Shown: positions 26,520 to 52,740, counted from the first letter of the stretch. The stretch: DNA of 64,000 bases from Raillietiella orientalis (GCA_036172245.1 JAYWIR010000011.1:4278001-4342000); one strand, 5' to 3'. Program-made: numbers and translations. The notes: generated from the sequence alone by a model not told the origin.

Positions 26520-26572
<53 letters not shown>

Positions 26573-28181: not shown

Positions 28182-28212
<31 letters not shown>

Positions 28213-29525: not shown

Positions 29526-30978
29526 AGATCCGGAACGCGAGAGCAGCAGCTCCTCTCCGTAATCTCTCGTTCCCGATCCGAAAGCCAGGAGAGCCCACGG
29601 AAGGCGTCCCCGTAGCCTCCCCAACTCACAGGAGGGCTTCGCGGTTCTCAACGCAAACAAATGAGGGGAAGCACCACCCCAGAACCGAAAGGTTTTCGCA
29701 TCCCGTCGTTCCCAAAGGGGTGGGAGAGGTGGCGAATCTTCGAGGGAACGAAAATCCCTTCCCCTCCGTCTGCAACCGTTCAAGGACCCGTGGTGGTGGG
29801 CGGGTCGTGTCTCGGCAGGGGGCGCTGGACATCTTTCTTCCCTCTTTTACACCGAGCAGGGCAGGGACGGCAGGAGGACAAGGGTCAGCCGCCGAAAGAG
29901 AGGCGCCAGGCGAGGTTCTCAAGCAGCGAGACGTCAGGAGGAGGAGCGGGCGCCCGGCCGTAGCTCGTCTGCGACCGAGGGGAATCCGTTCCGCGTCGTG
30001 GGTCGTGGGGTGGCCACTCCCGCGGCGGGCTGGCGGTCACGGTTCAGGAGGATGAGCAGAGGACCTGGTCGCGGTCGCCGCCGCCGTAGGCGTGGGCGTC
30101 AGCACGCTCTCGTTGCGGCTGGTGCTCGGCTCCGTCGCGCGCGTCGACGCGAGCGCTTTCGAGGCCTGGTCCCTGCCGGCGGCGGCGGCGGGGCAAGGCG
30201 GGGGGGGGGGGACTCCACCGCTTTTCGTCTGGTCGCCCCAGTTGCGGAGAAGAGCAACAGGGGGAAGCTCACGGATGCCTCCTGCCGAGCTGGAATTTTT
30301 TGGCTCGGGAGCGGCGTTCCGTGGCGTCACCTTCAGCAGAGATATGCTGGGCCCGAACTGCTGGGGTGGACTGCCCTCGTCCTTCGCTTCGGGCTGCCCT
30401 TCAGCAGAGATCCCAGCGGGTCGGGGCAGCAGCTCCTCCTCCTCGCCCTGGAAAAACCGTTCCGCCCGGGCTGTTCCGGGGCGCCTTCCGGGGTCGAAGC
30501 GCGCTCCCTTCCTCCCTAGAGAAAGCGACTTTTCCGCTCAGGAGGGTGCCGGAGGCGGGGGTCAGGAGAACGAAGGTCACGACCTGAGCGAGGAAGCAGG
30601 GGTGGAAGGAAGCGGGGGAGCTCCGGGACAGCGCGCGGATTACTCCGAGGGAGGACCCGGAGATGGCGCAACAGTCGGGAAAAAAAAAAAAAAAAATGCG
30701 GGGCCGGCGGAACGCGCGCGCGCGGCAACAACCTGACTGCGTGCGTTTCGCGCAGACGGCGCGACGGCAGATGGGAACGGCCGTGCCGCCGCGACGACGG
30801 TGGAATGCCGCCGACGCCGCGCGCGCTCCCCTCGGAAAGCCGATGTGTGCTATGAACACCCTCCCGGTCCACCTCTCTTCGCCGTAGCCGGCCAGATCCG
30901 GAACGCGAGAGCGTCAGCTCCTCCCCGTAATCTCTCGTTCCCGATCCGAAAGCCAGCAGAGCCCGCAGAAGGCATCCC
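29526..30978. repeat. 85-bp direct repeat pair (29526-29610 and 30894-30978)
   Basis: AGATCCGGAACGCGAGAGC...GAAGGCRTCCC; 7 mismatches counted by eye, no gaps. Confidence 0.9.
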
Positions 30979-32811
30979 TCACCCTCCCCAAAGGCCCAGA
31001 GCCTTTTCTCTTCTTCTCGCCTTGGTCCTGTCGGAGGCGATTCGGCGGCGGAGCCTTTCGCTGCCCCCGCTTTGCACTCCTCGCAGCTCCCTTCGGAGCC
31101 TTCCGGGATGCCGGTGGGTGGTCGAAGGCCGTGACCTCCCAGGGGAAGGAGGCGACAATCTCGTTCGACTTTCGGAGCGGCTCCTCGTGGACCCTAGGAT
31201 TTTCCCGGAAGAAGCGCGCGATTCTCTCAATCCGGTGCGCGCGCCTGCACACGAAGGGTTTCTCCCTCCCCCCCCCCCCCCATCTTCCCTCTCCCCGAAT
31301 CCTCCCGGGCAGGTGCATGCCGGTCTCACCGGTGCGTCGTCTCGCAGCGCTCCGTGGCTGCAGCGGACTCCGTCCAGGTCGGAAGGATGGCTCTCTTTCT
31401 TCCCCTTCGAAGATGCTCCCTCCCGCGACGAGAGAAAACCGATGCCCCTTCGCGACGGGCCGGGAGATTTCGGAGGGCGAGTGCGCTCTGCGCCTCGACC
31501 GATCCAATCGCCCGGTTCATCGAAACGAAGATCAGCACCTGAGTTCGCAGCATCCTCACCATCTTTTCTTCTTCTTTTCGAGTTTTCCCTCATTTCCGAA
31601 ATGCTGACGGGTCTCCCCGATTCTCCGTTGGTCAGTTCTTTACTGCACAGCGTGCGTTCCTGTGCACAGTGCACGGCGTCCAGTGTGCGTGCACGCGTAC
31701 GTGTCGACAAACATATGCAGAGTAGGCCTCCGTATAACACGGGGAATGCATTCCTCGCTATACGAATCCGCGTTATACGGGCCCCATGGGTTATGTACAT
31801 GGATAATGTGATAGTACTTCGACAAGATAAAAGGCCGTTAAAACGTAAACGTCCTAACAGTAGAATGGCTATTTTACTTTAGAAAAATAATAATAATAAA
31901 GCTGCTTATTATTTAATTTGAAGTGAAAAAAAAAAATTCAGAGTGTGTTGCTGTTTAATCAATTGAAACGATCCTATTTTTTAAGCGATTCAATTCTCGT
32001 TGTTGAAAATATATTTTGACGACACAAAAAGGAAGTGTTTTTATTAGAACGTGAAAATAACAAAAAAAATTCAACCTACTTCAACCATATGGTGGTATTT
32101 TTTTTCTTTTCTTTTTTTTTAAAAAAAAAAACAACAGCCGAACCTATACTACGAAATTGAATTTCTTCAGCAGCCTGTGAGGCGCTGATTAACCTCTTAG
32201 GAGTGTCGCCATTTTTTTCTGCGTCTTACGGGGGGGGGGGGGAGAGGAGGAGGAGGTCCGCTAAACACGTGACCAGGAGCGTTGGCTCGCACTCTCCAGT
32301 GCGTTGGCCTGGAGTGCGGCTCCTGCCTCCCTCTCAACGTCTGGCGGAATGCCCCCGAAACGCCTCGAGCTGCCCAGTGGAACGAAGACCTGGGCGCGCT
32401 TCACGTGGAAAGGGGCTGGGGGGCCGGGAGTGAAGCGGCTTCCTTCCATCCCTACCGCTGCAATGGACCCAGGAGGCGGGACGAAGAGGAATCACGGGAA
32501 AAAGCAATGGTGGCAGGACAAGCCGGAGACTGCGAGCGATTTTTCCAGCTCCTCGGAACGATTTTTCCCACGGGTGGGAACGCAGTGCTTCTGTGGCCCC
32601 CTTCGGAGGCACGCCGGCTGACCTCGGAGGCGCCAAAATCAGCCGTCTGTTCAAAGCAATTCTAACAGTAAGCACAAGAAGGCCTTTTCCGGTTCGTTCC
32701 TTCACCGTTTACCAAGTCAACCTGGCGGTCGATCTAAAAGGAAACAACGTGAGAGTTCTTCTCCTTCCGGTAAATACGAAGGGGGGCCTCGTAGATGGGG
32801 TGAGGTAAAAC

Positions 32812-33048
32812 AGCGTGGCCACATGGCCCGTGGTCACGGTCTCCGCCCGTGGCACCACCAAACGTCGCGGGTTCGAATTCCTCCTGCAAGATGACGCTGG
32901 TTGGCTTCTATTCATTCGTATGCGGCACTGGTAGCGGATAAAACCGGATGCCCCCAATGAGGGCCGGGACAATGGGAGTCGACCTTCGGGTCCTTCCAGG
33001 AATCAAGGAATGGGGAGTTCCCGCCTCCGGTTGTGCAAAGGAGTGGAA
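32812..33048 (+). mobile_element. tRNA-derived SINE-like element, copy A (3'-truncated, internal deletion)
   Basis: A-box-like TGGCCCGTGG and B-box GGTTCGAATTCC at 32870. The body CTCCTGCAAGATG.CGCTGG...GGCCGGGACAATGGGAGTCGACCTTCGGGTCCTTCCAGGAATCAAG is shared with copies B and C. Confidence 0.75.
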
Positions 33049-36000
33049 TTGTTGAACGTGCTTCGGGAACAATTTGGGAAGCAATTAAGGTAGGTAGTGT
33101 CAGAACCTTTTGCTCGTGGGAATCGTAGAACGCTAATTTGGCTTCGGTCCGCGATGACCTGTCCCACGTTCCAAAAGGGGGCTTCTTCTTCAAGAAAGCG
33201 GAAGGAGTAATCACAGGTCCGCGTGCAGGAACTTTTTCGATTTCCGCCTTCGGCTGGTCGTGTGGCTCGTCTGCTTGCCAATCGGAGGGTCGCAATCACA
33301 TCTCTGTGAATAGTTGTCAGCAGCCTGGCTGCAAACCTCCACGCAGTTTGGTCACTCGAAAGCAACAAATCCCATTTACGGTCCGTTTAAGTTCCAACAC
33401 TGAGGAGGGGCACCAGACGACCTCCCCACACCACGTCGGTGAATGCGAGACTTCTGCTTTCGAGTCCTTCCAACCAACGTGACTACTTGGGACCATGTAC
33501 CTGTATGAATCTAGATGGATCCGGTGAAATGTCAGATGATTTTTCAGTGAATTTCAATCGTACACGAATAGCACCCGGGAGGTGGGGTATTCTCACATAC
33601 CCCACATTCCGTGTGTTAATAATACGTCAACTCTTTGCGATCCGTGTGAGCCAGAATGGATTTCGTCGTTCCCAAAACCACACAAGAAAGCCAGCTAGAA
33701 TTCACCTAAGCACAAGGATGACCGTCTTGTAGACAACACTTCCGTCCATCATCAGATCAAAGTACTTCAACAAAGGCTGAATCAGAGACTGCATTCAAGC
33801 ACCTTGCAGTACCTTGGCTTCTGCACCGTCTATCGCTCTAACGCCCAGATTTGATTGCTAATCTGCTTAACATTTTTCCCGGGTTGCACCATTGGCTGAG
33901 GTAATTCTAGGTTGCCGCATTCATTTCTGAGGAATTTTTCTCAGCACCTGTAATCGGTCGTTCAACCATCTCATCAAAATTTGTTTGCCTCTTAGCCGCC
34001 ACCCTACCCGATTCAAGGGTGTGCTTCCTTCCGTCTTTAATTAGAACACGAAACACGACCAGGATTCCTTGCACGGGTTTAGGTTTACTGTGCGATGAGG
34101 TGGTCCACATATTTCAGAAATCGTAGGCAATCTTCAAGGTAACTGTACTGTACCAACGCTCGATCAAGCGATTGATTGTAAACACTGTTATTTCATAACC
34201 TCCAGAGCCAGACAGTCTGTGTGCTCGCTAGGAGAAATCCTTTGATGGATGGCAACCACTTGAGTAACCCAACCTAAAGCAGCGTACGGCATTCAAATTA
34301 TTATACACGCATTGCCCTAATAGTTGAGCAAGAGAGCTCAATGAATAATGACATTCACATACACTCATAACCAAAATCAAGCACTCGAGACTGGCTGCCT
34401 CAGCTCTTCATGCTGCTTCCGAAAGAGACAAACAAAAACGAGGGGGAAAAGCGCATGCAGTCAGCAGGCGCCGAGTCTATTGCTTGCGAGAATTAATGCA
34501 AACAGATGAAGAGAATTCTACCATAAGTAGGGAAGATGCCTTTCGATAATCTCCTGGGGACCTGGTTTTCCTCCGCGTACACACTGCATACCATAGATGA
34601 AGAAGAGGTCGTTCCTAAAACACACATTCTTGACTCGATACGTGCGATCTTGCCTCGGAATCTAACTGACGTGTGGTCGAAAACAGATCCCGGATTCGAC
34701 AGATCTGAGGTTGAAAACAGAAAGCAGATCTCTGAATTTTAATTGAGTCTGTGGTTGTGGTAGAAAGATTCCAACACCCAACTTGGGAAGATTTGGGATG
34801 AAGGATCAACAAGAAGAACACGTCCGCAGCCATCGAATATTTTCCTCTTGCCGACAGAAGCGTTTCGTCTCTTCCATTTAACTTTGATCACAGGGGCATT
34901 CTTGCGTCTTTGCGGTATACGGGAGTGCAAAGAATGACTTGCCTAAAAAAGCTCTTTTGATCACAGTGCAAATATCGAAGGGATATGGCAACTCTGCCTT
35001 ATTGTGATAAGTCATGTACAGCAAGTTCTCAGTTGTCGGACGCTCTGTCAACTGTCACCTTAGGTACGTGTCCCGTCTTTTAAAAGTGCGTTCCTTCTCC
35101 CCCCCTCATCATCCAAACTGCCTCTTAACACGCACTGTTAACAAGAGTTTCTTAGCAAGTTCCCGTTTACATTAATGTAAAATGAGGCAAGTTTAATTTC
35201 ATAGTAAACAAACAAACAAACAAACAGCTGGGTTGTGCTTCCATTCGTTACGGTACAAGAGGTGTAGTTCAGATGTGAAGACGATTAAAACGTAACCAAA
35301 TGTCGGTTTCAAGGGTGTTCGTTACATCCTTAGCTTCACGGGTGACGTATAATCAAAGGCTTCCTGGAATCTGGAGCAATGGCATCGCTTGATCCTCAAA
35401 CCTTCGTCACTGGAGTGTGTCGCATGGGAGAGTGTCTGCACAACAGAACTACGTGGAAACGAACTTTTTCCTTTTTTGATATTTTGTTTATGCTATTTAG
35501 GGGGTAACTCAAAAATGTTTCTCCATTGTTTGTGGAACTTTTTCATCGGTACAAAGCTCTTGCAGATGGGCGGCCGTCTGTGAAAGAACACATCCCTCTA
35601 AGGGACAGTGTCTAGCTACAGAACCAAAGTGATTAGGCAACGAAGGCTCAAGAAGTGAGCTTGGATGATTCTATAATGCTTCAAGAGAGTGGTCACCGTT
35701 GCCAGCATGCGGGTCTTTGAGGGTTTTGAGTAGCCGAGTGCGGGTTACTCTGATCAATGATTTTCGGAAATGCCACACTCATATCCCCCTCCCCCCCCAT
35801 GATGCCTGATGTTTTGGTCGCGAACGGCTCCAAGAATACCCAGCTATAATCTCAGTGTATGAGAATTTTTCCACATTTGCTGCGTTAGAAAAATCCATCT
35901 CAATGAGAACTGTACGAAAGTTGCTGCAACATGTACACATTTTCCTTCCCAAAACGGCCTGCAGCCCATAAGGAAGCGTGAAAAACGTACAAACAACACA

Positions 36001-38399
36001 TTGAAACCATTCGCACCTCGGCTAATTCTGGAAAGCAAATCGAATGTTTGGACGGCGAAGAGAAACTTCTGTCGAAGAAGTCTGGGCTGAGTCGCGATGC
36101 AAAGGTGGGGAGATGCGGCTGTACATTTTTGCAGGTTCAGGGGTTGAATTCCGAAAGAAAATGCTCGTGAAGCTTCAATAGGACGTACACATTACCATAT
36201 GTTTAGTAGGCGGAAGGTCCTTCTGGAAAAGAATTCAAAGCATGGAAAAATCAAAGCAAAATGGAGGTTCTATTTCCCCTCCCCCAAAATCTCACGGTGT
36301 GTTCATTTTGAAAAGGTGAAGTGAGACCAAAGAGAAGTAGTGAGGCGTTTCATATTTTATCCTTGCCTCAAAAGATCGCATTTTTGGAAGTACACTGAAG
36401 GCACCACCCGCCGCCGAGCACCAAACCGTACATTTGTTTACGAAATTCGTTTCCAAAGTCTTCCATTTAAGGGAACCGCAGCAACGCATGATAATCGCTC
36501 ACGCGGCCATTTTGGGTTAGCTCGAAAGATCCGAAGGGAACGATTCCGCGTCTCTTGCTATAAACGGTCACTATCAGTAGGACATTCAGACTGTACGCTT
36601 TGGACTTTACATCATTTGTAAATACTCACAGGGTATATTCATTTTTCCGTTACATAGTCAACTGGAGACGCATATGAGACGTTTGTTGGTTCATAGGCTG
36701 TCTTGTACGTATGTTTGTTGCATAATGTATTATTACCACAAGTGTGATGAGCACGTATGATATCGCCATGAATTATTATAAATACATTGCACAAATGTGT
36801 GTACTCACATTGTGTACACAAATAAAACACTCATCATTTTTTATTAATAAATACGATCCACTTATTTGGGATGGGAACGTATAAAATCATTGTGCTCAGA
36901 GTGTTCAGAAGTGAATAGCGACAGATCTGGAACGTTGGAACGAGCAATGTAATTAAAGATTGTTGCTTATGGAACTTTGCATACATTCTAAAGCCGTGCT
37001 TTTTACTTTTTTGTGTGGACAATAATCGTAATTTGAATTTGGAAATTCCTTCCAAAGCTAAATCGTACTTTGCAAACTTCGAATCTGGAGAACCAGTCTG
37101 TAACGTTCCAGCAGTCGAATTTCTCCGTGACACCTGAGATGAGACGCAAAGAATATCTTCTGCTGTGAAACTCTAGAAGCGATCGAACTCGAGACCTGTA
37201 CTCTGAAACAAGCAAGATTTCTAACTGAAGGATGACTGTCTATTGGAGCTTTCATATCTAGAGCGTTTGCATGTCTTCTAGCATCTTCGATTACGCAGTA
37301 GGCCGACTGCAAAGAGTCTAGATTGATCAGAGACTCGACAGAACTGAGTTATTTCATATTCATTCTCGAGATGAACGAAAATAGAGTAAAGAGTAATTGG
37401 AGATAGATCATTAGTGCTATTCAAACAGAGCAATATTCAGTTACAAAACTACTGAATGTGATTGAATAGTCAGATGAACTTTTTGACATCTTCCATCAAA
37501 GTTTCAAACCACCGAATATGTAGTAATATGTTAAGGGTCGATGATCCTTAACATGGAGTTATTCCTTTGAAAGCTTTGGAACGATTCTTTGAATTTGAAG
37601 GTGTTATTTGTAATAATTTCTATGCTCAGAATACTAAAAGAGCTGGTGTTTTTTATTCAAGTCTGTTTTAGATGATTTGAAATGAAAAATTAGGCGTCTC
37701 GCTGGCATGGTCATTCACCCAATTTCCAAACATTTATTGCGTAAATACATGATTCACATAATCAATTTCATGAGATAAGATTGAATTATTATTTATAATT
37801 ATAATCGAAATCAAAAGTAGAAAGGCAAGCTAATGCTCATGAGCTGATAAATCGACAAGTTGCATTGTTTTATTCATAACTTTGTCTACACTGCTGTGTT
37901 TCTATGTGTGCCATAGGTCTACTGCTCATGAAAATCTTTTCCCTGTTTTCATATTTTATTATGCCGTAAGATGTTTCTCCCATTACTCTTTTGTGAGTTC
38001 ATGCTTACCTAAGCTGCTTACACGATGTTTTCTTCATTAAATTATAACCCACATTTGCGTAAATTGAAGACATCTTTGTTATGGGTCTAATCAACTTCTT
38101 TAAATACCAGTCGAGTATGTCAATTTGGATTAGGCTACTGCCTCGTCATTCCAAGGATGGGGAATTCCCAAGTAGGCATCTACAAGATCATGCTGGTGAC
38201 AAAAGGGAATCAATGATGTTGACTTGGCATCTATGCAGTGTTTATTGTGACTTTGAATGGAGGAAGGTTCTGTTGGCCGAACGCAAACATGCAATTCGAT
38301 GGTAGCTGCTTTTATGGTTCCTTATTCTAATTAACTTTAGGATTTAGAAGGAATCCACGATTCGAAAGGAAAAATAAGAAATTTCATGTACTCTTTGCG

Positions 38400-39650
38400 G
38401 CATGCCGTCGATTTGATCGGAGCGTTATGTATTCGGGGGAAACGAAAGTTCATCTCATGCCCATCTGGCGAAAAAGTAACGGTGTCCTTATAAATTATTT
38501 ACGCTAGTTTTTTTTTTTTTCATTGCCTTGTCTGTCTGTCTTTTTTCTTTTTTCCCTAGTCAGGTTTAAATTTATCCGAGTGATGAATGTGGTGATGTGG
38601 CACAACCGTCTACTCGCAGCGCTGCGTGGAGAGTCGAGCATGAAAGTAAGGCGATCATCACCTCGGCGAAATTGGCATTGATTTGAATTCTTTTCTCTTC
38701 GAACGCGTCTTGGAGCACATGCCGTCGAAGCCGTAGCAATCGAATGAAAAACATTTTCCATTCTTTGGGAAAAAATTGCTGGAGTCCAAAATTTCTCCTT
38801 TTTTTTTTTTTTTTTCTTCTTCCCTTTTAGAGAGCAGCTACGGGAGTAATGCGATCGTTTTCGTGTTCCGTTCAGGTGCGAATCCGTGCTGTTGCCTGCG
38901 ATGGCGAGTAATGGCATAAAAGTTGCTGATTTCATTTCGACGACTGGGTTTCCAACGAATTTTCCGGCAGTCACATGGTCCGAAGACAACAACGTGGCTT
39001 TTCTGACACACACGGGAATACACATCTTTGTGAGTATGCATTCAACGTGTTGCGCCGCGAAACGGCTTCGTGTACACACGTGAATTCGGTGTACACGCTC
39101 GGTGCAGCCCAGCCGTGTCCTTTATTTTGGCATCTTGACGTCATCGGCAATAACAAATTTAATCGCGGACCCCCCTTTTTTCGTACGCTCTGTACGGAAG
39201 TTCTGTTTAATGAGTCTTGTTGCGAGTCCCTATGCCTTTTGCCGGTTGAACTTGAAAGTGTACGCGAGCGCCCGTTCTTTGTACGTAGCCGTGTTCACTG
39301 ATTTTCAAGGCCGTGAGTTGGTGCAGTGCATTCGTGAGCTTGCGACGGAAAGCCTTTGGTCAAGGTTTCATCTGGAAGGGGTTCATTTAGAAGACATTCG
39401 TGAATTACGGACGAGACCTTAACCGGGGTTGTGGAACACCAACGCAGAGATGTGAAGAGTTTTAGGAAAAATTCTCTCTGAGCGTTTGACTTGGCTTTGT
39501 AATCGTGCATCAGTTCCTAAAGTTGAACTTTGACTGCTTATCTTGACCTTATACTTCGTTGAAGTTCGATGTGCTAATTGTCACTTCCAAACGAGTCATT
39601 GTTTGCTGATTTTGAATTTCGTTTCCGCAATGTTTGTGGAAGGTATGAAC
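38400..39650 (+). promoter_or_regulatory. CpG-rich promoter region around GTF3C4 exon 1, possibly shared with ITFG1 and Gemin6
   Basis: CpG-dense block spanning the first coding exon; CpG density falls sharply from about 40400 across all downstream coding exons. Confidence 0.5.
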
Positions 39651-42600
39651 TGTTGTGGAGACATTCATGTGTTTAGTAATAACACATGTTGACGTTCGAA
39701 GCTGTTAAGAGCAAAATGTGTGATTTGCTGCACTTCCAGAGTTAGTCATACAGCTCCAAGAATTGCTTTTGATGTTAGACCGTTGTGATGTTTTCCACAG
39801 TTTCCACGATTAACAAAATCGTATAATAAGTTTGTTTTGCCTTATAACATTCGAGCAAGTTTATAGCGGCATTTGCACAAATGCATAATTTTCTGGTCCT
39901 TGCCCCAAAGTCGATGTTTTATATCTGTAAGTTCATGCTTGCAAAGCGTTTTGCCATTCTTGCATCATTGTGTTTCGACAATGCAGTTTTTGTGAACCTT
40001 GCAAGTGCATCAAGTATAACGATTCAATTCTTTTGATGGTATCCGAAAGTAGGAAACTGATTTTAAAGCGTTCCAGAGACCCAAAGTATCAGTTCTGAAT
40101 GAATGAATGAATTGTTGAAGTTAATGTTAAGGTGCCTCTCAAGTAGTGGTTGTATGCCTTCACACACTGTAGGGTCAAGAATGAATACTTTTTAAGCCAG
40201 CATTTGCCCACAGATGAACACCCACGAACCAGTTGTTTTGTACTAGTTGTTTTTCTGTATGGTTTTATAGTGGTTTCAGCATATGTATACTCAATACTTT
40301 TTCTCAGACCTTTTACAATTGACGTAATTAGCCTTAATTTTCCAAAAAATTCTCAATAATCACGGTATTCTCCCTTAAGGTTAAAAAGAAATGATGTGAT
40401 AACTAGAACCTCTTATTTGATGTGCTCAGGAAATTTTCATCAATTTAAGTGTTTGATCATTTAGATTGTTATGTGAATATGTTTTTTTTGTTGTGATTAT
40501 GAATCAGATCTATGATTCCTAAACTAATTTACTTTTTTTATCCCTTAATTTACCAGGTCCAGTTTGTGTGAATGATCTTGCTTGTATTGTGAATGTTATT
40601 TGTATTCCGGATTGCAAATTTTTTAATTATATTTAAATGATGAATAGACTTGTGCGTAAGTTATTATTTGGTTAAAATAACCTTGTGTTTTAAAATGATG
40701 CTAATATTCAGTTAAAATAAATTAATATCTGATTTTAAGGTGATCTGACTTAAGTCATAGGTATTTTGGATATGTACACTTTGTGCTTGGCAAATAGTAA
40801 AAGTGCATAAGCATTTATGTGGAACTGTTGCCATGATACATGCCATGATACTCAAGGCATACGATTTTCATTTCTTGTGTACTCCAAGTGGTTATTTTGA
40901 AAATGTTTCATTAATTATGAGGTTCAAAATTTGAAATGTGAAGAGAAATGAAGACGTTCATTCTTCTATGCCTTCTCCATTTCATGTTATTCAGAGCCAG
41001 CAATACATATATGTGACATATATGGACATATAGCATTGATTGTCAACTTGAGAGATGCAGGGAGGCCTTGTTGTTTCTAAAGCTTAAAACCAGTATCTAA
41101 AAATAATGAATTGGAACAAAAAAACATTGTCAAATTAATTTGTTTGCAGAAAAAGATTCCATAGATTTATCTATAAAAATGATCATTGTAAGGTTGCATT
41201 CATTTTGCCTGCTATTAACATGGCAAGTTTTACATGTTATTTGTGAAGATATAAGTGGTGATGTCTTTGGAAACCTCAGAAATTTCATTCCGGTTGCATT
41301 TGGTGATTTTAATGGAGATAAATTAACAGATCTGTTTGTTCTTACTTTGGATCATAGAATGCTTAGAATTCTGCTTGCCATAGAAAAGGATATTTTGATT
41401 GGTCCACAAAATATTGAGCCATATTTTCAAGATAAATTAAACATTAATTGCAGTGTTAATTTTAATGAGATTGACAATGTTACTCCAGCAGACTTCAATG
41501 GTGATGGGGCTCTTGATGTTATGATTTCAGTCAAAAACAAGGATGTTACTGATATTTATGTATTTTGGGGAAATTTGACTTACCTTGATTGTAGAGATGT
41601 AAACCAGCCATTGTTTAATGTAACAGGACAGCCATTTGTATTTGACTACAATTTTGATATGATACCAGATGTTTTGGGAGAAAATACTTTTGGGCAAAGA
41701 TATGTCTGGATGTTTCATAAAACCAAGACTTTTGAGGTCATCCAGTATGAATGTTCTTCACAAGACTCTGATTCAGTAACTCCATTCAACAAAAATTATT
41801 CACATGCCTTTATTGATTATGATGGTGATTTATCTGCTGACCTTGTGTTGACAGTTGAAACAGGCTTTGAAATATGCTTGTCAAAAGCTTCAGCTTGGAT
41901 AACTGTACCATACCCCCAAGAGTCAGTTATTAGGGGACAGTCATTGTTCATTGATATCGATATGGATGGAAGAATTGATCATCTGCTCCCAGTGTGTTAT
42001 GATGAATACTGCAGAGATTCGTCACTATTGCTGTTTTATGGAAATCATTGGATTAAGCTGAATATCAGTCTGACTGATGAATGGGGAAATCATTGGAAAT
42101 TTAATGATACCAAAAGCAATGGAGGACTTATTATTAGATCTGGTGACTTTGATTTGGATGGTTATCCTGATTGTCTTATGACTTTCAGTTTAACAAATGA
42201 TACCGTTGATAGTAAAAATCTATGCAAAGTGGTTTTGTTGCATAATGTAATGTGCAGGGACAATTGCTTGTTTAGTCGTACATTTGAGGTTCAGTGGACT
42301 GCTTTTGAGGAATTTGGAGATACAGTCTTGGGTGCATTTTTTGATGTTCATGAAGATGGATTACTTGAAGTTCTCTTATTAAGGTATTTGAAACATGGCA
42401 ATACTGAAGAAAGATACAATCTTGCAGCATATCGTGGGTGTTCAATAGATGATAGCAATTTTATTAAAGTCATGGTGTCAACAGGTGTCTGCTATGCCGA
42501 TTGTTTATTTCATCATGTGCCATATGGAACTAATCAGTATGGATCTACCATATGTTATAAGACAGTAGATCAAAATGGCGAGTTGCAACAGTCATGTGCT

Positions 42601-45600
42601 GGACAACTTTATCAGAATGCATATTTATCTTTGCAATTACCATATCACCTTTTTGGTCTAGGACGAACACAAAATTTTGTTGATTCATTGCAGATTGGTC
42701 TTCCTTATAAATCATATGACAGAAGTCGATCATGGATGCAAATTATACCAAATTCACAAATGGTCATTTTTCCATATCCTATTGACCAATCAGTGTATTG
42801 GTTAAACAAGTTGTTCATTACACCAAGACATTCAGTGTTGCTTATTTTGTGTTTCCTAATTGGAACATGTTTTATGGCATGGATTGTTGTTGCTGTTTTG
42901 CATTTACGAGAAAGAAGAATCGATAGAAAAGAAAGATTCTTGGAAGCCTATAGATTTCATTTTGATGCTATGTGATAGTTTACAAAATAAATGAGCAAAT
43001 TAACTAATTTATTTATTTGATTATTTATACTGCATATCTTTAATGAATGTAATATTCACTATTAAATGCACTTAAACAGATCGAACCTTGCAAATGAATA
43101 AATTACTTCTGTTCATTAAGATTCATATTATGTTCACCAGTATTATGTTCACTGCAATTTTTTATTGGTGAATAAGAAAAAAACATTTCCACCAAAAAAA
43201 ATTCTTCGGAGGCTTTTGTAAATCTCAAAGATTTCAAGCCATTTTGGGTTTTTATTTTATAACAGTTGTCATTATCTTTCAGAAATCTGTGCAACCTTGT
43301 ACCAAATTAGTTCAACATAAATTCTCAGTGTAGGCAGAATCCTGAACTGTTTTATAAACTAATAATGAAAAACTCTTTAATGATTAGTTTTTTAAATTGT
43401 ATATTGATATTGTACAGAATTTTTTTAACTATATATATTTTCATTTTGCAGAAATGAAATGCCAGTTTTTATTCATTCCCAAACTGATTCATTAGGAATC
43501 CATCGTGTTTTTAAAAATAGTCCTTTACAATTGAGTTCTTTTTTGGATAAGTATGTATTAATCGAGCTGTTTAATTCAGCAGTATATAGAGGTTGGATCT
43601 ACACAGTTGATCCTGTTAGTGAAAGTGTTGTTTTGCAAAACATAGAAGATGGTCAAATTAAAGTGATTATTATTTCTGGTGTTCATATAAAAAAATTGGA
43701 AATTCTTTCGGAAAATAAAGAAATTTCTCAAATCCATAAATCTTTGTTCCGATGTGAGTCATCTATGCCCTTGACTGATGAAAACTTGAAGATGAGGAAG
43801 TGTGAAATCATACATGCTTTTGAAAAACATAAGATACCTTTAATAGACAATGGTATTAATTTATATGTTAATGAAGACAACTTTATTCAGCCCCCTTATC
43901 AATCTGACAGTTGTGTGTGCACCAATGAAATAATTCTCGAAAGAATTCAAAAGATTTTGGCATCCATCAAGTAGACTGTATTTGCAATCAGTAATACTAA
44001 TAAAACTTGTCATCATGCTGTAATGTAATCTTGCTCATGTTATTTGAAACACACTGTGCAAACTGTGCAAATATTTCATTAACATGTTATAAAATGGTAT
44101 AAATAAATCTTTAATATGTAATAAATCAACTTTTGTGATGCCAAAAAATTCTGTTTGCATTTCTAGTGTATTTAATCATTGCATACTCGACTTGAAGTCC
44201 AGCTTTGACTCTTAGCTATAAAATATTAAACTGTTTCCTTTTAAAGTGCACATTTTGAATTAATCGCAAGTGCATCTGTCAAATCTGTATAAAAATTCAA
44301 TATGCAAATGAAATTTCCATAAAATCCCAAATTTCCAAACATAAAACCAAAATTTTTAATGAATTTTCTCTTAATTTATCAACATAAATGCATCATACTA
44401 TACATTGAATCTTTTGAAAAAAAAAAAGTAATGCTTCCACTTGGCTTGACCACATTTTCTCTGAACAGCTTGGTGATTTTTTTAATACCACCATCATTTG
44501 AAACTATAAAATATGAAATGCTTTTGTTCCGAAATCTGATCATCATTTCTTTTAAACAGAATCCGACTTACAGGAGTGGCTTTATTGCATTTTGGGGGAT
44601 GTTTTGTACTCCAAGTTTGTTTATGTTTACTCCATTTTTAAGACTAATTGTGTATAAAAGTGTGATTTGATTGTTGCTGTTGATGTTAAGAGTACAAGTA
44701 GAACTTAAGTGTATTAAAATATTTTATCTTTAGAAGTTAATATTTTCATCATTGTCAAAGCAAAATGGGATTAGATTATGGAATAATGTCATCCCACCTT
44801 CAAAAATGGTTAATCCAGTGTATGATTCAGAGTATACAGGTATTTACCAAAAAATTCAATTTCAAGAACTAAGTGCATTTGTTTCAGATTTAGTTTTCTA
44901 GTTTTTCATGATTTTATCAAAAGGATTATATTATAATACAATTATTAATGTTTCATTAATTGATGCTTATATTTACCATACATGCCTATTTTACATTTAG
45001 CCTTATCAGTAAGAAAATATTGAATAAATGGATTTTAAATATTAATTACTTTTCGTTGTATCCAATGCAGAAGAGTAAAAAAAAAAAAGTAGTGAGGATT
45101 CTGTGAACCAAAACTTTGTAGTAGTAATGACATCATGCATTTTATAATTTTTATATGGCTTCTGGTAATGCAAATTTATCATTAATTAAAAATACTGGTG
45201 TGGCTGAGATCAAAATATATTCATCTCAAAATCTCATTGCAGATTCTTAAATTCATTTTATATAAACCAGACTCAGAAAAATTGTAGACCCCAAATTTCC
45301 ATGTTAACTTTAGCATAATTCTAATATCTGTTCCGTCTGTAATCATTTTGTTAATGACATCAGATAGGTTAGTTTGCTTTGTGATTTTAATGCACATGTA
45401 ATCTCATATACTGGAAAACTAGTTATTCCTCAGTGAATTAAAAAAAATTCCTTTTTTAATGTCTGAGGAAGAGTTTAATCAAAGTGTGGTAAATAATTTC
45501 TCATTTTAACAAACTGACATCTAAAAGCGAGTTAACTGTTGATTTTTATAGTATTTATTTGGCTTCTGTTGAATAAGTGACCACTTATCAAGTTTCAGGA

Positions 45601-48600
45601 AGGAGAATTAAAATGAACTTCCTGAAATTAGATTTTAATATGAAAAGCCATGAAAGTGGAGCCTATTACAGTTTACAATAACTTTTAATGTCCTACATAT
45701 ATTTGAATATCTTCAAATAATTTGAATATCTTCAAAAATTGTTGTATTAAGCTTTTTCCAGGATTGTTCTTACCTCTAACTTGGTTTTATTATGAATGAT
45801 CGACCTATCAATTTTGTGATCAAAGCAGATAATTTTTTGTAACCTACAGTGCACTCTTTTCTGTTCAGGCTGTAGTTTGGAGGAACTCTTATCGTTGCCA
45901 CAGATTAATAGACAAGAAAGCTATAAAGCTATGCTGGATAGAACAATTATTCCACAGCTGAAAAGTGGTGAAGAGACATTCAGGTGGTATAAGAGTGTTT
46001 CCTGGTCACCTAAGGGAGTTGGAAAATTAAACAGGTACAAGATATGTTTTCATAAGAAAATATAGGTTATTTTAAAAATATAGGTTATCATATATTATGA
46101 ATTATAAAATGTACTGCTCTCAAAAAAATTGCATTTTAAGTTAAGTGAGGTTTTCAGTTTGTATTAGCATATTTATTCTTGATTCTATGTTTATTTTTAT
46201 TATTCCAGATGGCCTTCATTGCACATCTTGTTTCAGTATTTAGGCCATTCTTCAAAGAATGGTTTGTCACGCGTATGTTTTTATTTTACTTGTTAAATTT
46301 CGTCTTTATTATTAGTGAATTGGCTCAATGAATTGACTAAATTAACTGTGAAATTATGTTTATATGGATGCAGTAATGCCATGTTGATATTTCATGTTAT
46401 ATTTTTGTTTGCAGTTGTCTTTTAGCTTCTGTGACATTTGATCACTGGTTAGTTCTATGGGAGTGGAATGAAAGAAAATGGGAATTAGTATATGATCTGT
46501 CACAGAAATGGCTTCATCATTTATTAACTACTACTGAATTTAACATGCCTGCTCTACAACCTGTTACTTTTCCTGATTACTTAGCAAAGTTTAAGAAAAG
46601 AACATATTTGTTAAGTTTCCAAGGTATCAGATAAAAATAAAAAAGGTTTTTTATATTAAGTGAAAATTAACTCAATAACTAAAACTGTTTTCACAATTAA
46701 CACAAAAGATAAGTAAGATCGTAACAATCTTTTTGTTTAATAAAAGGAAAATATAATTTCCCTTTTATAAAACGGAAGCTTCTTTATTGAAATATGTTTC
46801 TATACTTGTGCCATTAGAAATTATTTTAAGATTAAAAGTTTTAAGCAGTAGTTTTTAGTTATGGAAGCACATGCTTAAGTTTTGATTTTTTTTATTTTGT
46901 TTCTAATAGATAATTTTTGTTATTGATGATGTGATCACTTCATCATTTTTATATCATTGTTTTTTTTGTCATGTTTATATTAATATAATGCTCGTATGCT
47001 GCTAATATTTTCGTTCTTCCATTTCAACATTTATGCTCAGCTACTCAAAATTTCAGTTTAGTAGGAAAGCTCTATTGCTTTGCTGTGAATAACGTGACAA
47101 AAATAATGACCAGTCTTGATTTTAAGAACACTTATCCTTGAATTCCTTTGGTTTAGATTTCTGTATTCTACTGCATTTGTTTGCATTTGTCATAGGTTGC
47201 ACGTGTATGTAAAGTTTTCTGATTGCATAACATTAAGACTTATTGCAATAATGGGTGTGGACAAACGTTCTGAAGCATTAAATCAATGAACATTAATTAC
47301 ATTAAAAATGAAAAAAAATAATACCCGTCCTTATAGTTTGTATCATTTGCAAAATTAGACAAAGAATCTCATGTTTGCACAAATTAATTCATGGTAGTAC
47401 ATAGTTTGAGTTCAAATTATATTTTATTGTGATAAAAGAAAATTCCTAAGCATTAATTTTCATCATCGACGAATTAGAAATGAAGATTCTCTTATTAGGT
47501 TTCTTTATCATGAAAAGTTTCCAGCTTTTACTGACACAAATAATTGTAACGAAAACAGTAATAGCATTGCATAATGGAAATCTGTTGATAACAGTGTGTT
47601 CCAGACTACTTACATTGCATTTTGAATTGATTTAATTCTTCATCAGAATATTTTAACCAATTTTATTTTCTTGTGCTAGAAATATGTTGGAGTCATCTAT
47701 TCGAAGATGATAGAAATGATTTTTTTTCCTTGCTGTTCTGTTCCACGAAGTTTGCTAACGTCATAATTTGGAAAGTTGAATCTTCTGTTGTCATATCTTT
47801 ACAGTCTGTTTTGGATTTTGATGATCAAATAAGTACTTTGTCTTGGTGCAAACTAAATAATGCTGAAGGTATTATAAATTTAGCTAAAAGCTGGTGTTTC
47901 AAATGTTGTTTTTTAAGGTTTTCTTTTAATTGGGCACCTCTCAGGTCAAGTAAATATGTATTATGTGAATGCAGTCAACAATGAAGTCATTTTGAAGTCT
48001 TTAAATCCGGTTTGTTTAGAGAATGATCTCCTTAAAGTTTCCCATATTCTCTGTAATGTGGTGGAAATGAGACCATTAACCCTGAATGCTGTAATTTGTA
48101 AACGAAATGTTCTGCTTTCTTTGGTTTTATCCATCGATATTTGCAAAGGATCTGCAAAAATGATCTCAACAACACACGTTTTCATTAATGGACTAAACGT
48201 TGCAGGTGTAAAAATAAGCTTTTGTTTTTTTTAATAACTAGGAATTTTATCATATTTGGATAAATGCTTATAACATATCAATTTCTGTTTCTATTTATTG
48301 TGCCTTAGTGTTTCTCATATGGAAATTACATAAAAATTTCGGAAAAACATGCATTTTTTTCCGTTTAATAATCATCTAAATACGTTGAAAGGTTAGAATT
48401 CATTATGATCGAAGTTTTTTATTTTTTTTAGGTATAACAAGAATGTATGATGGCAATTTCTTAGTTGCATCTCAGAATGGATATCTGTCTAGAGTTGGTG
48501 TAGATTATAACTCTGGGAACAAAATTTCTAAGGAGAATATAGATTTCCCCAAAAAGTTTTCAAAATCACTTTTTTTTGGATTAGCAAATTCACCAAATCA

Positions 48601-51600
48601 GATATTATGGTGTTTGTCAGAAGCGTAAGTATTTCATGAACAATTTTTTTTCATATCCAAAGTACATAAATTATACCATCCTCAATGCGAAATACATTAT
48701 TTTGTTAAAACTATTCTTTGCATGTTTAAATAACCACGAACAAAGCATCTACAAACCACAAAAGCTTTTATTTTCAAATTCCGTTTTGTTGAAAGGGGAA
48801 AAGAATTGATGTGGGAGAGATCAGAACGTATTGAATGATTCCTTATAGTTATGTTTTCTTATATGTGTGCAGTTCTAATTTTCGCAAAGGGATATGAAAG
48901 AGAAATTCTTTATTATATAAGAATTTTCTTTCTAGGAAGTAATCCCCCCAAGTCTTAATTTATTACGTTATTTCATGGTTGTATGCTAGAAGTTTTGCAG
49001 GAAACCTTGAGAATATTGTTATTTTTCTGGTGAAATTAAAATCATTGCTACCCCTCACATCAGTATTTGATCAGTCTTGAATTTCTAGATTTTCAGAAAA
49101 TAAAATGTGGCTTTTCTATGAGGGGCAGATTTATTAAAAGTTTATGGCTGAACAAATAGAAGTTGAATTAAAATTTTCGAATGTGTTTGGAAGTATTACC
49201 TAATTTTGATTCTTTTGAGCAAGTTTGACACCTAAATTGTGCCTAATTTTGAATTCAAATTCAAAACATTTATTTGATCAAGGGAAACTAGGAACAATGT
49301 TAACAGAATCCGGTAAAGTAAAACGTGTATATTTAGGAAGAAAATAGCACTTGATACCTAAAAAGTAAACTGAAAAAGATGGGTGAATGCTTATGTGGTG
49401 GAAATTAATCTTTTGAGATATCATGTTTTTCAATCCTCAGTTTGGTATACAGTTTAATTAAGCTCCTTTGCATATGCAAAATGAGATTTGTTGGATTATT
49501 CATATTCTCAGTATTTGGTAAGTTTGTTATGGAAACATGCCATTAAATTGAAAAATATTCTAAGCTTTAAAGTCTAAACAATGTTTTTTTGTGTGATTTA
49601 TATTCTTCTGTTTTTTATTATTGTTTTCTATTCTTATTGTTTGTTTATTATGGTTTTTGAGGAAGATCAATTTTAAATATTGTTCAATAAATTTTGTTAT
49701 ACATTCCTTGAGTTTAATAGTACTATTGTCATAGCCGGAAAAATTTGGAATTAAAAACGAAAATGAAAATAATATGTATGAAGTTTGTTGATGAATCTGG
49801 ATCTACAGGAAACTGAGATAGTCAGAAAAATGTGTTGAGCAAACAATTGTTAGTTAGACATTTCTTCATTAGTTGCATTAAATGTATTTACCTAAAAGGA
49901 GGATTATATGTTAATTTGTTATCTAAAGTATAGGTTGCATGTCAAATCATTTGATTTTGAGAGAACCAACATCAGCTACGTTCTTCGTGTATCCGGATCC
50001 CCAGATTGCATTTGATAACTTGTATGAAATCTCATCCTTGAGAATAATGAATAATGTGGATATTTTGGAAGCTGTGAGGTATATTTGAATATTTTATCTT
50101 ATAGATTTTTAGTTTTTAATTTCAAGAATTTATGGCACCAATATTAATATCGAAAAAATGTTTACTGTAATTGAAAATCCAAAATCTGTTCCAACAAATA
50201 TGTTACAGTTATGTTGGTGGAGCATTAATATAGCTTTACATACCATGCATATCGATGACAACGTTGCTGAAAAATTGGTTAGTATATAGATAGATTCTTT
50301 TTTCTTTCTCTCATAACACAGTTGATAAGCAATCAGCGGACAATACTGTAACAAGAGATATGTTTATTTATTGATAGTTTATCGATTATGAATATTGGCA
50401 TTTCTGCAAATATTTTCCTTAAATAATTTCATGTTTTCAATTTTAGAAATGATGATTGTGAATCATTGTTATTCTTAATTGAATTCTTTATGATAGTTCA
50501 TGTAAAGTCTAATAATTGATGTTTTTATTCAGTAAGTCATTTGATGTATTTTTTTTGTTTTTTCCAGAAAAGTGGATGCATCCAATTACAAAATCAAATA
50601 TTCCTTAATCACAGAATTTCATATGCAAAGGAAACATTTCTGAAATCATTAAATACACAACAAAGGAATTCATGTTTACTCGTGCTAAAATGGCTTTTGA
50701 AAAATCAAGATCTGCTTTCTGAAGAGCAGATGGGCTTTCTGCAACGTATGGAAAATCAGCTCAATTCAGATTTGCCATCATGCGTGGACATTTGTTCAAT
50801 TTGTGGAGAAAATATCCTTTTATGATTAACTATTTAAGAATCAAATTAATTATTTGACAGTTGAATCTGCGTAATTTTTATAGGACTGTTTGATTTTATT
50901 TAAAAAGAACTTCAGTTGGAAGCATGGTTGTAGAAGTTTAAATGTCCAGTGTTTTTGGAATTTTATCAGTTGCTTATAATAAATATAGTAAATTTTAATG
51001 AATTTTATACACTGTTGGCTTACATTAAATAATGAATGTTTGTGTCAGTTCTCGTACTTTGTGACAAGTATCATAGTTTTAACAAAATGTTAAACAGTAA
51101 TTCCTTTAATCACAATTTATGTAAATATTTTAATATCAGCTTGGAGCTCATATGACATTATAGGAATATATCTGGTGTTTTATTTACACGAGACTTTTGT
51201 TTATTGTTTTAATGTTACATCCCATTATCAGTACTGATTTTTAGAATTGAATTATACTTGCCTTCATGTTTTCAGAGAAGTCTCGTTTAATCTAAAGCCC
51301 CTTTTGTTTCAAGTGAATCCACAGTATTGGTCCTTTGTATTCATAATTTAAAAAAAAATCCCATAGCTGTTGAGTATGTTGCACTTTGTTTCGTAACGAT
51401 TGTCAACCTTAATTGATAGTTTACAAATTCCCATTATTGATGTTACATTTGGTGCCTGTCCAAATGACCATAAGTTTCCACGTTGCAGTCAGACAATGCT
51501 TCTTTGCGATACAGTTCCATACTATCGCTGTTCATCTTGTGGTGCATATGCATGCAATCTGCAAGGTATGATTTTTTTTAATTTTTTCATGACGAAGTAT

Positions 51601-52740
51601 GTTGCATGAATATACACTGCTGGTGACTATACGTTACCAGCAATGTTCACTTATTCCAGTGTTTTCTTGTTCCGAATGATGAAAGCATTTTATGTGAAAA
51701 TCTTAAGCATTTAGAGTTCCTGATGTTGCTGATGCTTCAAGCATGAGCGACAAAAGTTTTCAAAGTTTCCAATGCCAAACCCTGAAATCAGACATTTTCA
51801 CTGCCGCTCATGAAGTTTATTTTATCAAAATAAGGTTCGCAAATTTAGATTTGTTCAATGAGTATGCAAAGAGGACTTGGAACTTATTTTTAGCATCGGT
51901 GAATTCACACGAGGGGATCCGCCAGAAAAAAATTGTCTTTAGTAGAACATGACCTTTTTTTCATCAATTACAAAAATACCATTAATGCATTGGCACACGG
52001 GTCATTAAGCCTGAGAGACTCGAAACCATCGGCAGTTGGGATCTTTGTGTTTTAATTAATGGAGGGTTCAGAAGTGAGATTGTTTGTGGAAACATGAACA
52101 TCCCATCATGGAAACCATGGCATGCTACAGGACTTCAATCAAGGAAATCCTTGATTGCGAGGATCCGACAACTGTCGCAAAATCTTTGTGCAAAGTCTCC
52201 ATTCCCGTTTTTTGTTCAGTAGCGCACGTCAGCCATAAATGGCCTTTCTCTCCAGGACTTGTTGAGTGGGGAAGTAGAGGAGACTGCTATCTCTTAATGA
52301 GTAGCAATGTCGTAGCATGGAATTATTCCTGTTGATGGAACTCACTTAGAAAATGAAGTGTTTTTTTGTTCTTGAGATTTAGGTAATTGGTCACATAAAT
52401 CGGTTGATGTAGCGTATGAGTAAATTATGCCTTAGCAATTTCACGTGCGTTAGCATCGTGGTTCTCAAATGACTAACGTTAACATTTGATCACTTCCTAA
52501 TCTCAAGTATCATCTGCACACGTATAGTTCGTCGAGTCGTAATCGTTTTTGTGTTTGCCTACCGATGAGAGCGTGGGATTCCCTGCGTACTCGGAATCTG
52601 CCCTTTTACTGCAGGACTCATTAATGATCCGAAATAATAAGGTGGCTAGAAATGATTTTCCTTGTTTTTGTTTTTTTCTTCCAGGTGGACCTTGGAGCAT
52701 AAGGTGTGTACTGTGTGATGGACTTATTCATCAGGCGTGA
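38901..52740 (+). CDS. GTF3C4: General transcription factor 3C polypeptide 4 (TFIIIC90/delta), about 673 aa
   Basis: Exons 38901-39029, 44734-44839, 45869-46034, 46415-46623, 47680-47868, 47918-48205, 48432-48624, 49929-50078, 50127-50277, 50568-50811, 51425-51565, 52685-52740 total 2022 nt in frame. Motifs: AVTWSEDN, MLDR...SVSWSPKG...CLLASVTFDHWL, FGLANSPNQ, and a C-terminal zinc finger CSIC...CPNDHKFPRC...C..C...CVLCDG. Confidence 0.9.
41179..42975 (+). CDS. ITFG1: T-cell immunomodulatory protein / LINKIN (integrin-alpha FG-GAP repeat protein 1), 598 aa, intronless CDS nested in GTF3C4 intron 1
   Basis: Single ORF; the first ATG (41179) gives a signal peptide. FG-GAP motifs AFGDFNGDKLTDLF, PADFNGDGALDV and GDFDLDGYPD; LQLPYHLFGLGRTQNFVD; IIPNSQMVIFP; C-terminal TM helix and conserved tail RFHFDAM. 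Confidence 0.97.
   Translation: MIIVRLHSFCLLLTWQVLHVICEDISGDVFGNLRNFIPVAFGDFNGDKLTDLFVLTLDHRMLRILLAIEKDILIGPQNIEPYFQDKLNINCSVNFNEIDNVTPADFNGDGALDVMISVKNKDVTDIYVFWGNLTYLDCRDVNQPLFNVTGQPFVFDYNFDMIPDVLGENTFGQRYVWMFHKTKTFEVIQYECSSQDSDSVTPFNKNYSHAFIDYDGDLSADLVLTVETGFEICLSKASAWITVPYPQESVIRGQSLFIDIDMDGRIDHLLPVCYDEYCRDSSLLLFYGNHWIKLNISLTDEWGNHWKFNDTKSNGGLIIRSGDFDLDGYPDCLMTFSLTNDTVDSKNLCKVVLLHNVMCRDNCLFSRTFEVQWTAFEEFGDTVLGAFFDVHEDGLLEVLLLRYLKHGNTEERYNLAAYRGCSIDDSNFIKVMVSTGVCYADCLFHHVPYGTNQYGSTICYKTVDQNGELQQSCAGQLYQNAYLSLQLPYHLFGLGRTQNFVDSLQIGLPYKSYDRSRSWMQIIPNSQMVIFPYPIDQSVYWLNKLFITPRHSVLLILCFLIGTCFMAWIVVAVLHLRERRIDRKERFLEAYRFHFDAM
43459..43974 (+). CDS. GEMIN6: Gem-associated protein 6 (SMN complex), 171 aa, single-exon CDS nested in GTF3C4 intron 1
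   Basis: Sm-like motif YRGWIYTVDPVSESVVL and C-terminal IQPPYQSDSCVCTNEIILERIQKIL. Acceptor TTTTGCAG ends at 43451; AATAAA at about 43999. Confidence 0.92.
   Translation: MPVFIHSQTDSLGIHRVFKNSPLQLSSFLDKYVLIELFNSAVYRGWIYTVDPVSESVVLQNIEDGQIKVIIISGVHIKKLEILSENKEISQIHKSLFRCESSMPLTDENLKMRKCEIIHAFEKHKIPLIDNGINLYVNEDNFIQPPYQSDSCVCTNEIILERIQKILASIK
50812..51424 (+). other. U12-type (minor spliceosome) AT-AC intron in GTF3C4
   Basis: 5' site ATATCCTTT at 50812, branch site CCTTAAT at 51407-51413, terminal AC at 51423-51424. Removal restores the frame (CSICGE-K-IPIIDVTFGACPNDH); read-through meets TGA at 50823. Confidence 0.9.

Follow-up and report, generated by a model that had tools for sequence, protein, structure and literature searches.

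In the cholinergic locus the intronless VAChT gene is housed by ChAT, in intron 1 and in the same orientation, and the two genes, which serve one pathway, have a promoter and a non-coding first exon in common; in the spliced-leader (SL) resolved operons of nematodes, tunicates and chaetognaths, unrelated same-strand genes stand behind one promoter, with an acceptor just before the ATG and a poly(A) signal upstream. The Su(var)3-9/eIF2-gamma locus of dicondylic insects is described as an exon inside a same-strand intron of an unrelated housekeeping gene, with common 5' coding exon(s) and promoter, an age of hundreds of millions of years and re-fission in one lineage (Krauss et al. 2006, PMC1435931); CPNE1/RBM12 and about 20 other human pairs are described as having one promoter and common 5' exon(s) ahead of wholly different coding sequences, the choice being made by splicing and polyadenylation (Yang et al. 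2008, PMC2568002). The locus treated here lies in a window of 64,000 nucleotides (nt) from Raillietiella orientalis (GCA_036172245.1, JAYWIR010000011.1:4278001-4342000), in which the first intron (39030-44733, + strand) of GTF3C4, the gene of the 90-kDa subunit of TFIIIC, contains two single-exon genes, ITFG1 and Gemin6. As in Su(var)3-9/eIF2-gamma, exons of other genes thus sit in a same-strand intron of their host and, as in the same locus and in the CPNE1/RBM12 type, a promoter and a first exon are most likely held in common, here by GTF3C4 and ITFG1, in what sequence comparison suggests is one transcription unit.

The nesting of ITFG1 and Gemin6 on the + strand of the GTF3C4 intron had been proposed in a first-pass annotation and was borne out, all features being found in place; with exon 1 recognised as the start of the GTF3C4 propeller and homology-supported GTF3C4 exons from 45869 on, it is settled. 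The ITFG1 open reading frame (ORF) matched C2_ITFG1 (PF23122) with 116.8 bits (cut-off 27) and FG-GAP_3 (PF13517) with 43.5 bits, and the product, with FG-GAP repeats, the C2_ITFG1 domain, a signal-peptide-like N-terminus, a C-terminal hydrophobic segment and about 600 amino acids (aa), belongs to the ITFG1 family, for which 596-612 aa are given in fly, worm, mouse and human (PMC4275582). Of 6638 candidates, 224 proved to be homologues at E <= 0.001; the best of them covered 94-100% of the query and were 40-41% identical to it, so that no close relative of the organism is present in the collection. The Gemin6 ORF matched Gemin6 (PF06372) with 51.7 bits (cut-off 23.9) and Gemin6_C (PF20417) with 36.9 bits (cut-off 33.4), both the Sm-like and the C-terminal domain being present. 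Around the nested genes no target-site-duplication-like direct repeats were found, nor, by eye, any remnant of an A-rich tail, as signs of retrogenes. The accompanying remark that nested genes are more often antisense to their host agrees with Drosophila, where 71.27% of nested genes are reported on the opposite strand (PMC3814207).

The case for a common exon was made with the 43-codon peptide of GTF3C4 exon 1. By phmmer against 120 listed ITFG1 homologues of the 224, the peptide matched P0006 (Lepidurus arcticus, E 3.8e-5) and P0032 (E 7.8e-4), in both at the extreme N-terminus, and more weakly the N-termini of P0031, P0027, P0059 (Apolygus), P0025, P0055 (Lygus), P0022/23 and P0061 (Cimex). 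These proteins carry an extension of about 40 residues ahead of the ITFG1 signal peptide, and exon 1 was aligned with the extensions end to end, from Met1 to the last residue of the exon. A profile was built from the N-terminal peptides of 11 other arthropod proteins, the window sequence being excluded, and was run against 2675 six-frame ORF pieces of the window; only the piece +38850-39080 was recovered (E 4e-7; next best 0.32). The same profile retrieved from the protein collection 18 proteins at E <= 10 among 2034 candidates, namely 16 of ITFG1 type, one of GTF3C4 type (Cimex XP_014242126.1) and one ORF of 117 aa; 11 of these 18 carriers had gone into the profile, and seven are independent matches.

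The GTF3C4-type carrier (P0125) is isoform X1 of Cimex lectularius LOC106662500 and has the domains TFIIIC_delta and zf-TFIIIC; isoform X2 of the gene, XP_014242127.1, is of ITFG1 type and bears the adjacent RefSeq accession number. Residues 1-40 of the two are identical, and the sequences then diverge. The TFIIIC_delta match in P0125 begins at residue 23, which is profile position 1 and lies within the common exon. Exon 1 of the window carries WSEDNN, the start of the TFIIIC_delta propeller, and its WSED motif is homologous to that of the relatives; by homology to P0125, the domain start (profile position 1, the W-S-E-D strand) is in exon 1. On this comparison exon 1 is natively the propeller start of GTF3C4, and ITFG1 appears to borrow it. 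The exon had been treated earlier as a leader only; this was not upheld, as relatives use it as a common coding exon that gives ITFG1 its N-terminal extension. Exon 1 alone had no match in Pfam or PDB. In the ESM Atlas all ten of the best ten named clusters were N-termini of beta-propellers, with a best score of 0.90; recognition fell short of the mark set by the tool, and the result is a lead only. A profile from the A1 alignment, run against PDB, returned only an unrelated fimbrial chain (E 0.3), which was rejected.

The exon-1 peptide was present in 14 of the 120 ITFG1 homologues listed, and four further carriers came from the profile search. The nearest named relatives of the carriers are Cyclestheria, Sida and Evadne (diplostracan branchiopods), Lepidurus, mirid bugs and Cimex; the arrangement is thus conserved across several lineages, as named by nearest relative. 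The diplostracan carriers have Val-Ser after the peptide, as expected of a GTNAGT donor that has been read through, so that exon 1 and ITFG1 are contiguous there in one frame; in the bugs and in Lepidurus the sequence joining extension and ITFG1 appears spliced. An exon-1-like N-terminus was not found in the decapod, amphipod, mayfly, barnacle, copepod, myriapod and spider proteins examined, and annotation may have dropped the peptide in those groups. A shorter remnant of exon 1 in P0001 was considered and set aside as not significant (shuffle p 0.06). In a quick single-gene ITFG1 tree the window sequence was placed on a long branch among non-hexapod pancrustaceans, outside Malacostraca and Branchiopoda (SH-aLRT 86).

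The 11-exon model of GTF3C4 comprises 655 codons and is stop-free throughout. When 11 ORF pieces were scanned with Pfam, TFIIIC_delta or zf-TFIIIC similarity was detected in three: exons 3 and 4, scanned singly, gave 17 bits each (E 0.003), which is under the cut-off of 27 bits, at consecutive profile positions, and the ORF 51397-51609 of exon 11 passed the zf-TFIIIC (PF12660) cut-off of 23 bits, the expected C-terminal domain being present. Exon 5 had weak collinear tblastn matches to the Cimex GTF3C4 protein. Exon 2 probably belongs to GTF3C4, as judged from its splice sites, phase and length: it has a single open frame, requires an upstream exon of phase 0 and ends in phase 1, fitting exon 3; with exon 2 the WSED motif and the exon-3 anchor stand 67 residues apart, and without it 32, compared with 61 in the Cimex protein. 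The intron between exons 10 and 11 was read as AT-AC because only this reading keeps the frame; it has a branch-site-like motif, CCTTAAT, 12 nt before the 3' terminal AC, and is presumably of U12 type, as judged by the consensus sequences of that class. No AATAAA or ATTAAA was present for the 3' end of GTF3C4 in 51501-52600. A word search with exon 3 among longer proteins gave 18 candidates, none at E <= 10, exons 1 and 3 gave nothing relevant in PDB, and the sole match of exon 6 among 1.84 billion representatives, an unrelated repeat protein of 5074 aa, was rejected; such single-exon blanks (Pfam, PDB, word search, representatives) are uninformative, because exon 3, which has a TFIIIC_delta match, fails too.

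On the 5' side of the GTF3C4 ATG there are very strong polypyrimidine and acceptor-like sites, T-run...CCCTAG ending at 38559, T16CTTCTTCCCTTTTAG ending at 38830 and CCGTTCAG ending at 38875, and an upstream ATG at 38849; the acceptor-like sites in 38500-38900 may belong to a 5' non-coding exon further upstream or to a trans-splice site. The features of the locus are collected in Table 1.

Table 1. Positions of the GTF3C4 exons, the two nested genes and the associated signals, counted from the first nucleotide of the window.
Feature	Position	Strand	Remarks
CpG-rich, GC-richer block	38400..39600	.	observed/expected (o/e) 1.0-1.56; surrounds GTF3C4 exon 1; presumed unmethylated promoter region
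GTF3C4 coding exon 1	38901..39029	+	43 codons, phase 0 end; profile match and alignment
Tandem donor GTGAGTATGC	39030..39039	+	donor A 39029/39030, donor B 39033/39034; use presumed
ATG at 39630, then donor AAG/GTATGA at 39642/39643	39630..39648	+	phase 1 end
Acceptor-like site ...TTTGTTTGCAG (also written ...AATTAATTTGTTTGCAG)	41134..41149	+	exon start 41150, 29 nt before ITFG1 ATG
ITFG1 (TIP/LINKIN) single-exon coding sequence	41179..42975	+	complete, 598 aa, own ATG
AATAAA	42986..42991	+	11 nt past ITFG1 stop
Acceptor-like site ...TTCATTTTGCAG (also written ...ATATTTTCATTTTGCAG)	43436..43451	+	exon start 43452, 7 nt before Gemin6 ATG
Gemin6 single-exon coding sequence	43459..43974	+	complete, 171 aa
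AATAAA	43999..44004	+	25 nt past Gemin6 stop
GTF3C4 exon 2 (probable)	44734..44839	+	splice sites, phase, length
GTF3C4 exon 3	45869..46034	+	TFIIIC_delta profile positions 50-96; SWSP motif
GTF3C4 exon 4	46415..46623	+	TFIIIC_delta profile positions 96-136
GTF3C4 exons 5-10	47680-47868, 47918-48205, 48432-48624, 49929-50078, 50127-50277, 50568-50811	+	frame-consistent model
AT-AC intron of GTF3C4, presumably U12-type	50812..51424	+	5' ATATCCTTT; frame kept
GTF3C4 exon 11	51425..51565	+	zf-TFIIIC 27.6 bits

The locus would work as follows. Transcription would start in the CpG-rich block around exon 1; splicing of exon 1 to 41150 and cutting of the RNA after 42986 would give the ITFG1 mRNA, and skipping of both nested terminal exons with joining of exon 1 to 44734 would give the GTF3C4 mRNA. 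With the main donor, exon 1 would act for ITFG1 as an upstream ORF of 47 codons ending 14 nt before the ATG; with the GT 4 nt downstream it would form an in-frame fusion with ITFG1 like that of the relatives. Gemin6 would either come from the common primary transcript, its exon being joined at 43452, or have its own promoter within the 483 bp between ITFG1 and Gemin6, the two being about equally likely. For ITFG1 three starts can be envisaged: independent initiation, reinitiation after the exon-1 upstream ORF, or a fusion protein.

The frames bear on these routes. Donor A (TTT/GTGAGT) ends in phase 0 and so fits the frame of exon 2. Donor B (phase 1) opens a stop-free in-frame path to the ITFG1 ATG by way of 41150 and is also in frame with exon 3. 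The further donor at 39642/39643 had been suggested as the source of a separate non-coding leader; the site exists, and nothing supports its use. It ends in phase 1, hence it would likewise be in frame with ITFG1, behind the small ATG at 39630.

The signals around the nested genes were compared with chance over 6.8 kb of the strand. AATAAA occurs there eight times (1.17/kb), so that a particular stop has one within the next 30 nt with P of about 0.034; both nested stops have one nearby, at about 0.034 each, and the claim that AATAAA follows each coding sequence was thus confirmed as more than chance. The acceptors before the two ATGs had been called strong; they are present, and their strength exceeds chance much less. 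YAG sites with at least 8 of 14 pyrimidines, the grade of the ITFG1 acceptor, number 54 (7.9/kb), and those with at least 10 of 14, the grade of the Gemin6 acceptor, number 17 (2.5/kb); the two filters recover 6/9 and 5/9 of the GTF3C4 acceptors, respectively. By a small local matrix the Gemin6 acceptor, with 10/14 pyrimidines, ranked 4th of 331 AG sites; this matrix, made from nine local sites, was overfitted (the GTGAGT donor scored -1.2) and was replaced by the simple pyrimidine count.

CpG-rich, promoter-like DNA was found only around exon 1, as had been claimed, with no second island before ITFG1, Gemin6 or exon 2. Beyond the island, a single block that is CpG-poor and AT-rich runs from about 40000 to about 52000. 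The window as a whole is animal DNA and a mosaic of AT-rich, CpG-poor gene blocks (gene bodies with CpG o/e 0.1-0.5) and, between them, GC-richer intergenic blocks with o/e of about 1; depletion of CpG in gene bodies is the pattern expected from germline gene-body methylation.

The proposal of a single unit with one promoter for all three genes fared unequally. For GTF3C4 and ITFG1 it is strongly backed by the comparison with relatives; what ties Gemin6 to the unit is its position and strand, an acceptor of fairly good quality, the poly(A) signal that it has of its own and the missing CpG island, and nothing else. The explanation favoured here, with moderate confidence and for all its parts jointly, is that of an old composite locus with its promoter at exon 1 and alternative terminal exons: the GTF3C4-ITFG1 pair would be a copy of an old pancrustacean composite locus, and Gemin6 would be an extra, later passenger in the first intron of GTF3C4, the core being older.

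A number of observations weigh against this explanation. Among the carriers of the peptide only one protein of GTF3C4 type was retrieved and none of Gemin6 type, and some of the database entries for ITFG1 with an extension are ORF calls on unspliced contigs, which speak for contiguity in one frame and not necessarily for a spliced mRNA. Joined to the ITFG1 acceptor, donor A is out of frame, and reading ends after 4 codons at a stop that lies 14 nt ahead of the ITFG1 ATG; joined to the Gemin6 acceptor, it is out of frame, and reading ends after 1 codon at a stop that lies 1 nt ahead of the Gemin6 ATG. Since donor A is out of frame with both nested genes, an mRNA with exon 1 would carry an upstream ORF of 45-47 codons, unless donor B is used for ITFG1. 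That a donor such as B should be in frame has a chance probability estimated roughly at 0.15-0.2, and its bases -3 to -1, TGA, are poor. Any RNA from the acceptor at 43452 has, ahead of the Gemin6 ATG, the ATG at 43454. The ITFG1 acceptor (8/14) is unremarkable among the 54 sites of its grade. The CpG argument is weakened by RFT1, which starts in the window at 15884 with no CpG island within about 4 kb. Finally, ITFG1 has its own ATG (A at -3) and a signal peptide, as expected of an independent gene or of re-fission.

Two side observations belong to these genes. The ATG at 43454 stands 5 nt before that of Gemin6 (ATGAAATG) and opens an out-of-frame ORF of 13 codons that overlaps the Gemin6 start. 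RFT1 lies on the + strand at 15884-17800, with Rft-1 matches of up to 108.7 bits, and its ATG is preceded 8 nt upstream by the acceptor-like ...CCACATCTAG.

The alternative that survives best is that ITFG1 and Gemin6 are ordinary same-strand nested genes with AT-rich intronic promoters of their own, the ancestral sharing of the exon having been lost by re-fission; it is regarded as a real but minor possibility. In its favour are the ITFG1 start and signal peptide, the frame of the canonical exon-1 donor, the quality of the ITFG1 acceptor and the start of RFT1 without an island, as set out above, and also the separate poly(A) signal of each nested gene. The re-fission documented in aphids for a comparable locus, Su(var)3-9 (PMC1435931), and the report that same-strand nested genes of Drosophila are mostly single-exon (72.53%, PMC3814207) point the same way. 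Against it, the DNA between 40000 and 45000 has no compositional sign of a promoter (CpG o/e 0-0.7), exon sharing is conserved in several other lineages, and the in-frame path from exon 1 persists.

An extended form of the single unit was also weighed, in which one promoter and one coding first exon would serve three unrelated proteins, as an "alternative-terminal-exon operon". GTF3C4 would be made by way of the main donor, ITFG1 as an in-frame fusion by way of the second GT in the GTGAGT hexamer and Gemin6 from an mRNA headed by exon 1, by termination-reinitiation, the exon-1 frame stopping one base before its AUG, and the GTF3C4-ITFG1 core would be older than the split of branchiopods and insects; taken together, this is unlikely.

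Distinctly unlikely, too, is an operon-like unit resolved by SL trans-splicing, in which a transcript from the exon-1 promoter would be cut at the poly(A) sites and a leader joined at 41150 and 43452, removing the upstream ATGs. Partnerless acceptor-like sites do stand 29 and 7 nt before the nested ATGs, with similar sites ahead of the ATGs of RFT1 (at 8 nt) and GTF3C4 (at 25 and 70 nt); the problem of the upstream ORF would vanish, the ITFG1 tree places the window among non-hexapod pancrustaceans, and SL trans-splicing is described in calanoid copepods (PMC4664967). Opposed to this, no SL RNA gene or SL-bearing mRNA is known for the genome, a scan of the window with Rfam returned no family, and the relatives make ITFG1 by cis use of exon 1. 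The spacers are long, with 477 nt from the ITFG1 stop to the Gemin6 acceptor and 759 nt from the Gemin6 stop to the acceptor at 44734; from poly(A) signal to acceptor they measure about 460 nt (42986 to 43451) and about 730 nt (43999 to 44733), against about 100 nt for the short spacers of SL trans-spliced operons. Moreover, the first AUG after 43452 would be the out-of-frame one at 43454.

That exon 1 belongs to ITFG1 only and GTF3C4 starts past Gemin6, the three being tandem genes without nesting, would fit the blank of exon 1 alone with Pfam TFIIIC_delta and the in-frame ATGs in exon 2 (44806) and exon 3, but is very improbable: the Cimex peptide heads a protein with TFIIIC_delta and zf-TFIIIC, with profile position 1 inside the peptide, the TFIIIC_delta match in the window begins only at position 50, in exon 3, so that about 50 positions of the domain must be encoded upstream, exons 1, 2 and 3 fit in phase, and Pfam and PDB blanks for single exons are uninformative, exon 3 also failing against PDB.

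Elsewhere in the window, the 5' part of a TRIP12-like HECT ligase gene (WWE and TPR_TRIP12_N matches) lies in 1-7100 on the - strand, and a CpG island at 5900-7100 may be a divergent promoter. Upstream of the locus, 22000-38000 is a GC-rich stretch of 16 kb (up to 70% GC at 30-31 kb), CpG-normal and rich in repeats and low-complexity sequence, in which both strands have long spurious ORFs and no gene was recognised. An interspersed repeat is present in two copies, 53808-54296 and 56329-56994, which are 81-90% identical over five collinear segments and contain the string GGTTCGAATAC, which resembles a tRNA B box, and may be a tRNA-derived short interspersed element; no tRNA gene was found in the window by ARAGORN.

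No paper describing a common exon of GTF3C4 and ITFG1 was found; the three papers found to name both genes appear to be human or mouse studies, and TFIIIC is not mentioned in the LINKIN paper (PMC4275582). The arrangement is visible in the NCBI annotation of Cimex. If ITFG1 does depend on the promoter and first exon of GTF3C4 in branchiopods, bugs and this crustacean-like lineage alike, the locus would be a second ancient case, after Su(var)3-9/eIF2-gamma, in which a single gene binds together two proteins that are unrelated. Splicing and polyadenylation would compete, and their competition would link the production of a Pol III factor to that of a cell-adhesion protein and perhaps of an snRNP-assembly factor; gene models would be incomplete where ITFG1 begins at the internal ATG or where GTF3C4 is without exon 1.

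The nearest counterpart is the composite gene LOC106662500 of Cimex, together with the ITFG1 proteins of mirids, Lepidurus arcticus and diplostracans that bear the peptide; the two protein families are the same, and the first-exon peptide is homologous and starts TFIIIC_delta. In Cimex, compared at the level of proteins, both products continue in frame after a shared stretch of 40 identical residues that ends with the exon, whereas here the frame of the main donor suits GTF3C4 only, ITFG1 has an ATG of its own, and a third gene, Gemin6, for which no peptide carrier of its type was found, lies in the intron. In contrast to the cholinergic locus, no functional link is evident among GTF3C4, ITFG1 and Gemin6, and in contrast to the SL-resolved operons, the further genes lie within the intron of the first and not after it, with spacers of 0.5-0.8 kb. 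The pairs of the CPNE1/RBM12 type are resolved by splicing and polyadenylation, as is proposed here, but their common exons are described as 5' untranslated region (PMC2568002), whereas the exon here is coding, at least in the relatives. From Su(var)3-9/eIF2-gamma the locus differs in the pair of genes, in the nested protein, which is complete, with its own start codon and signal peptide, and in having two nested genes instead of one.

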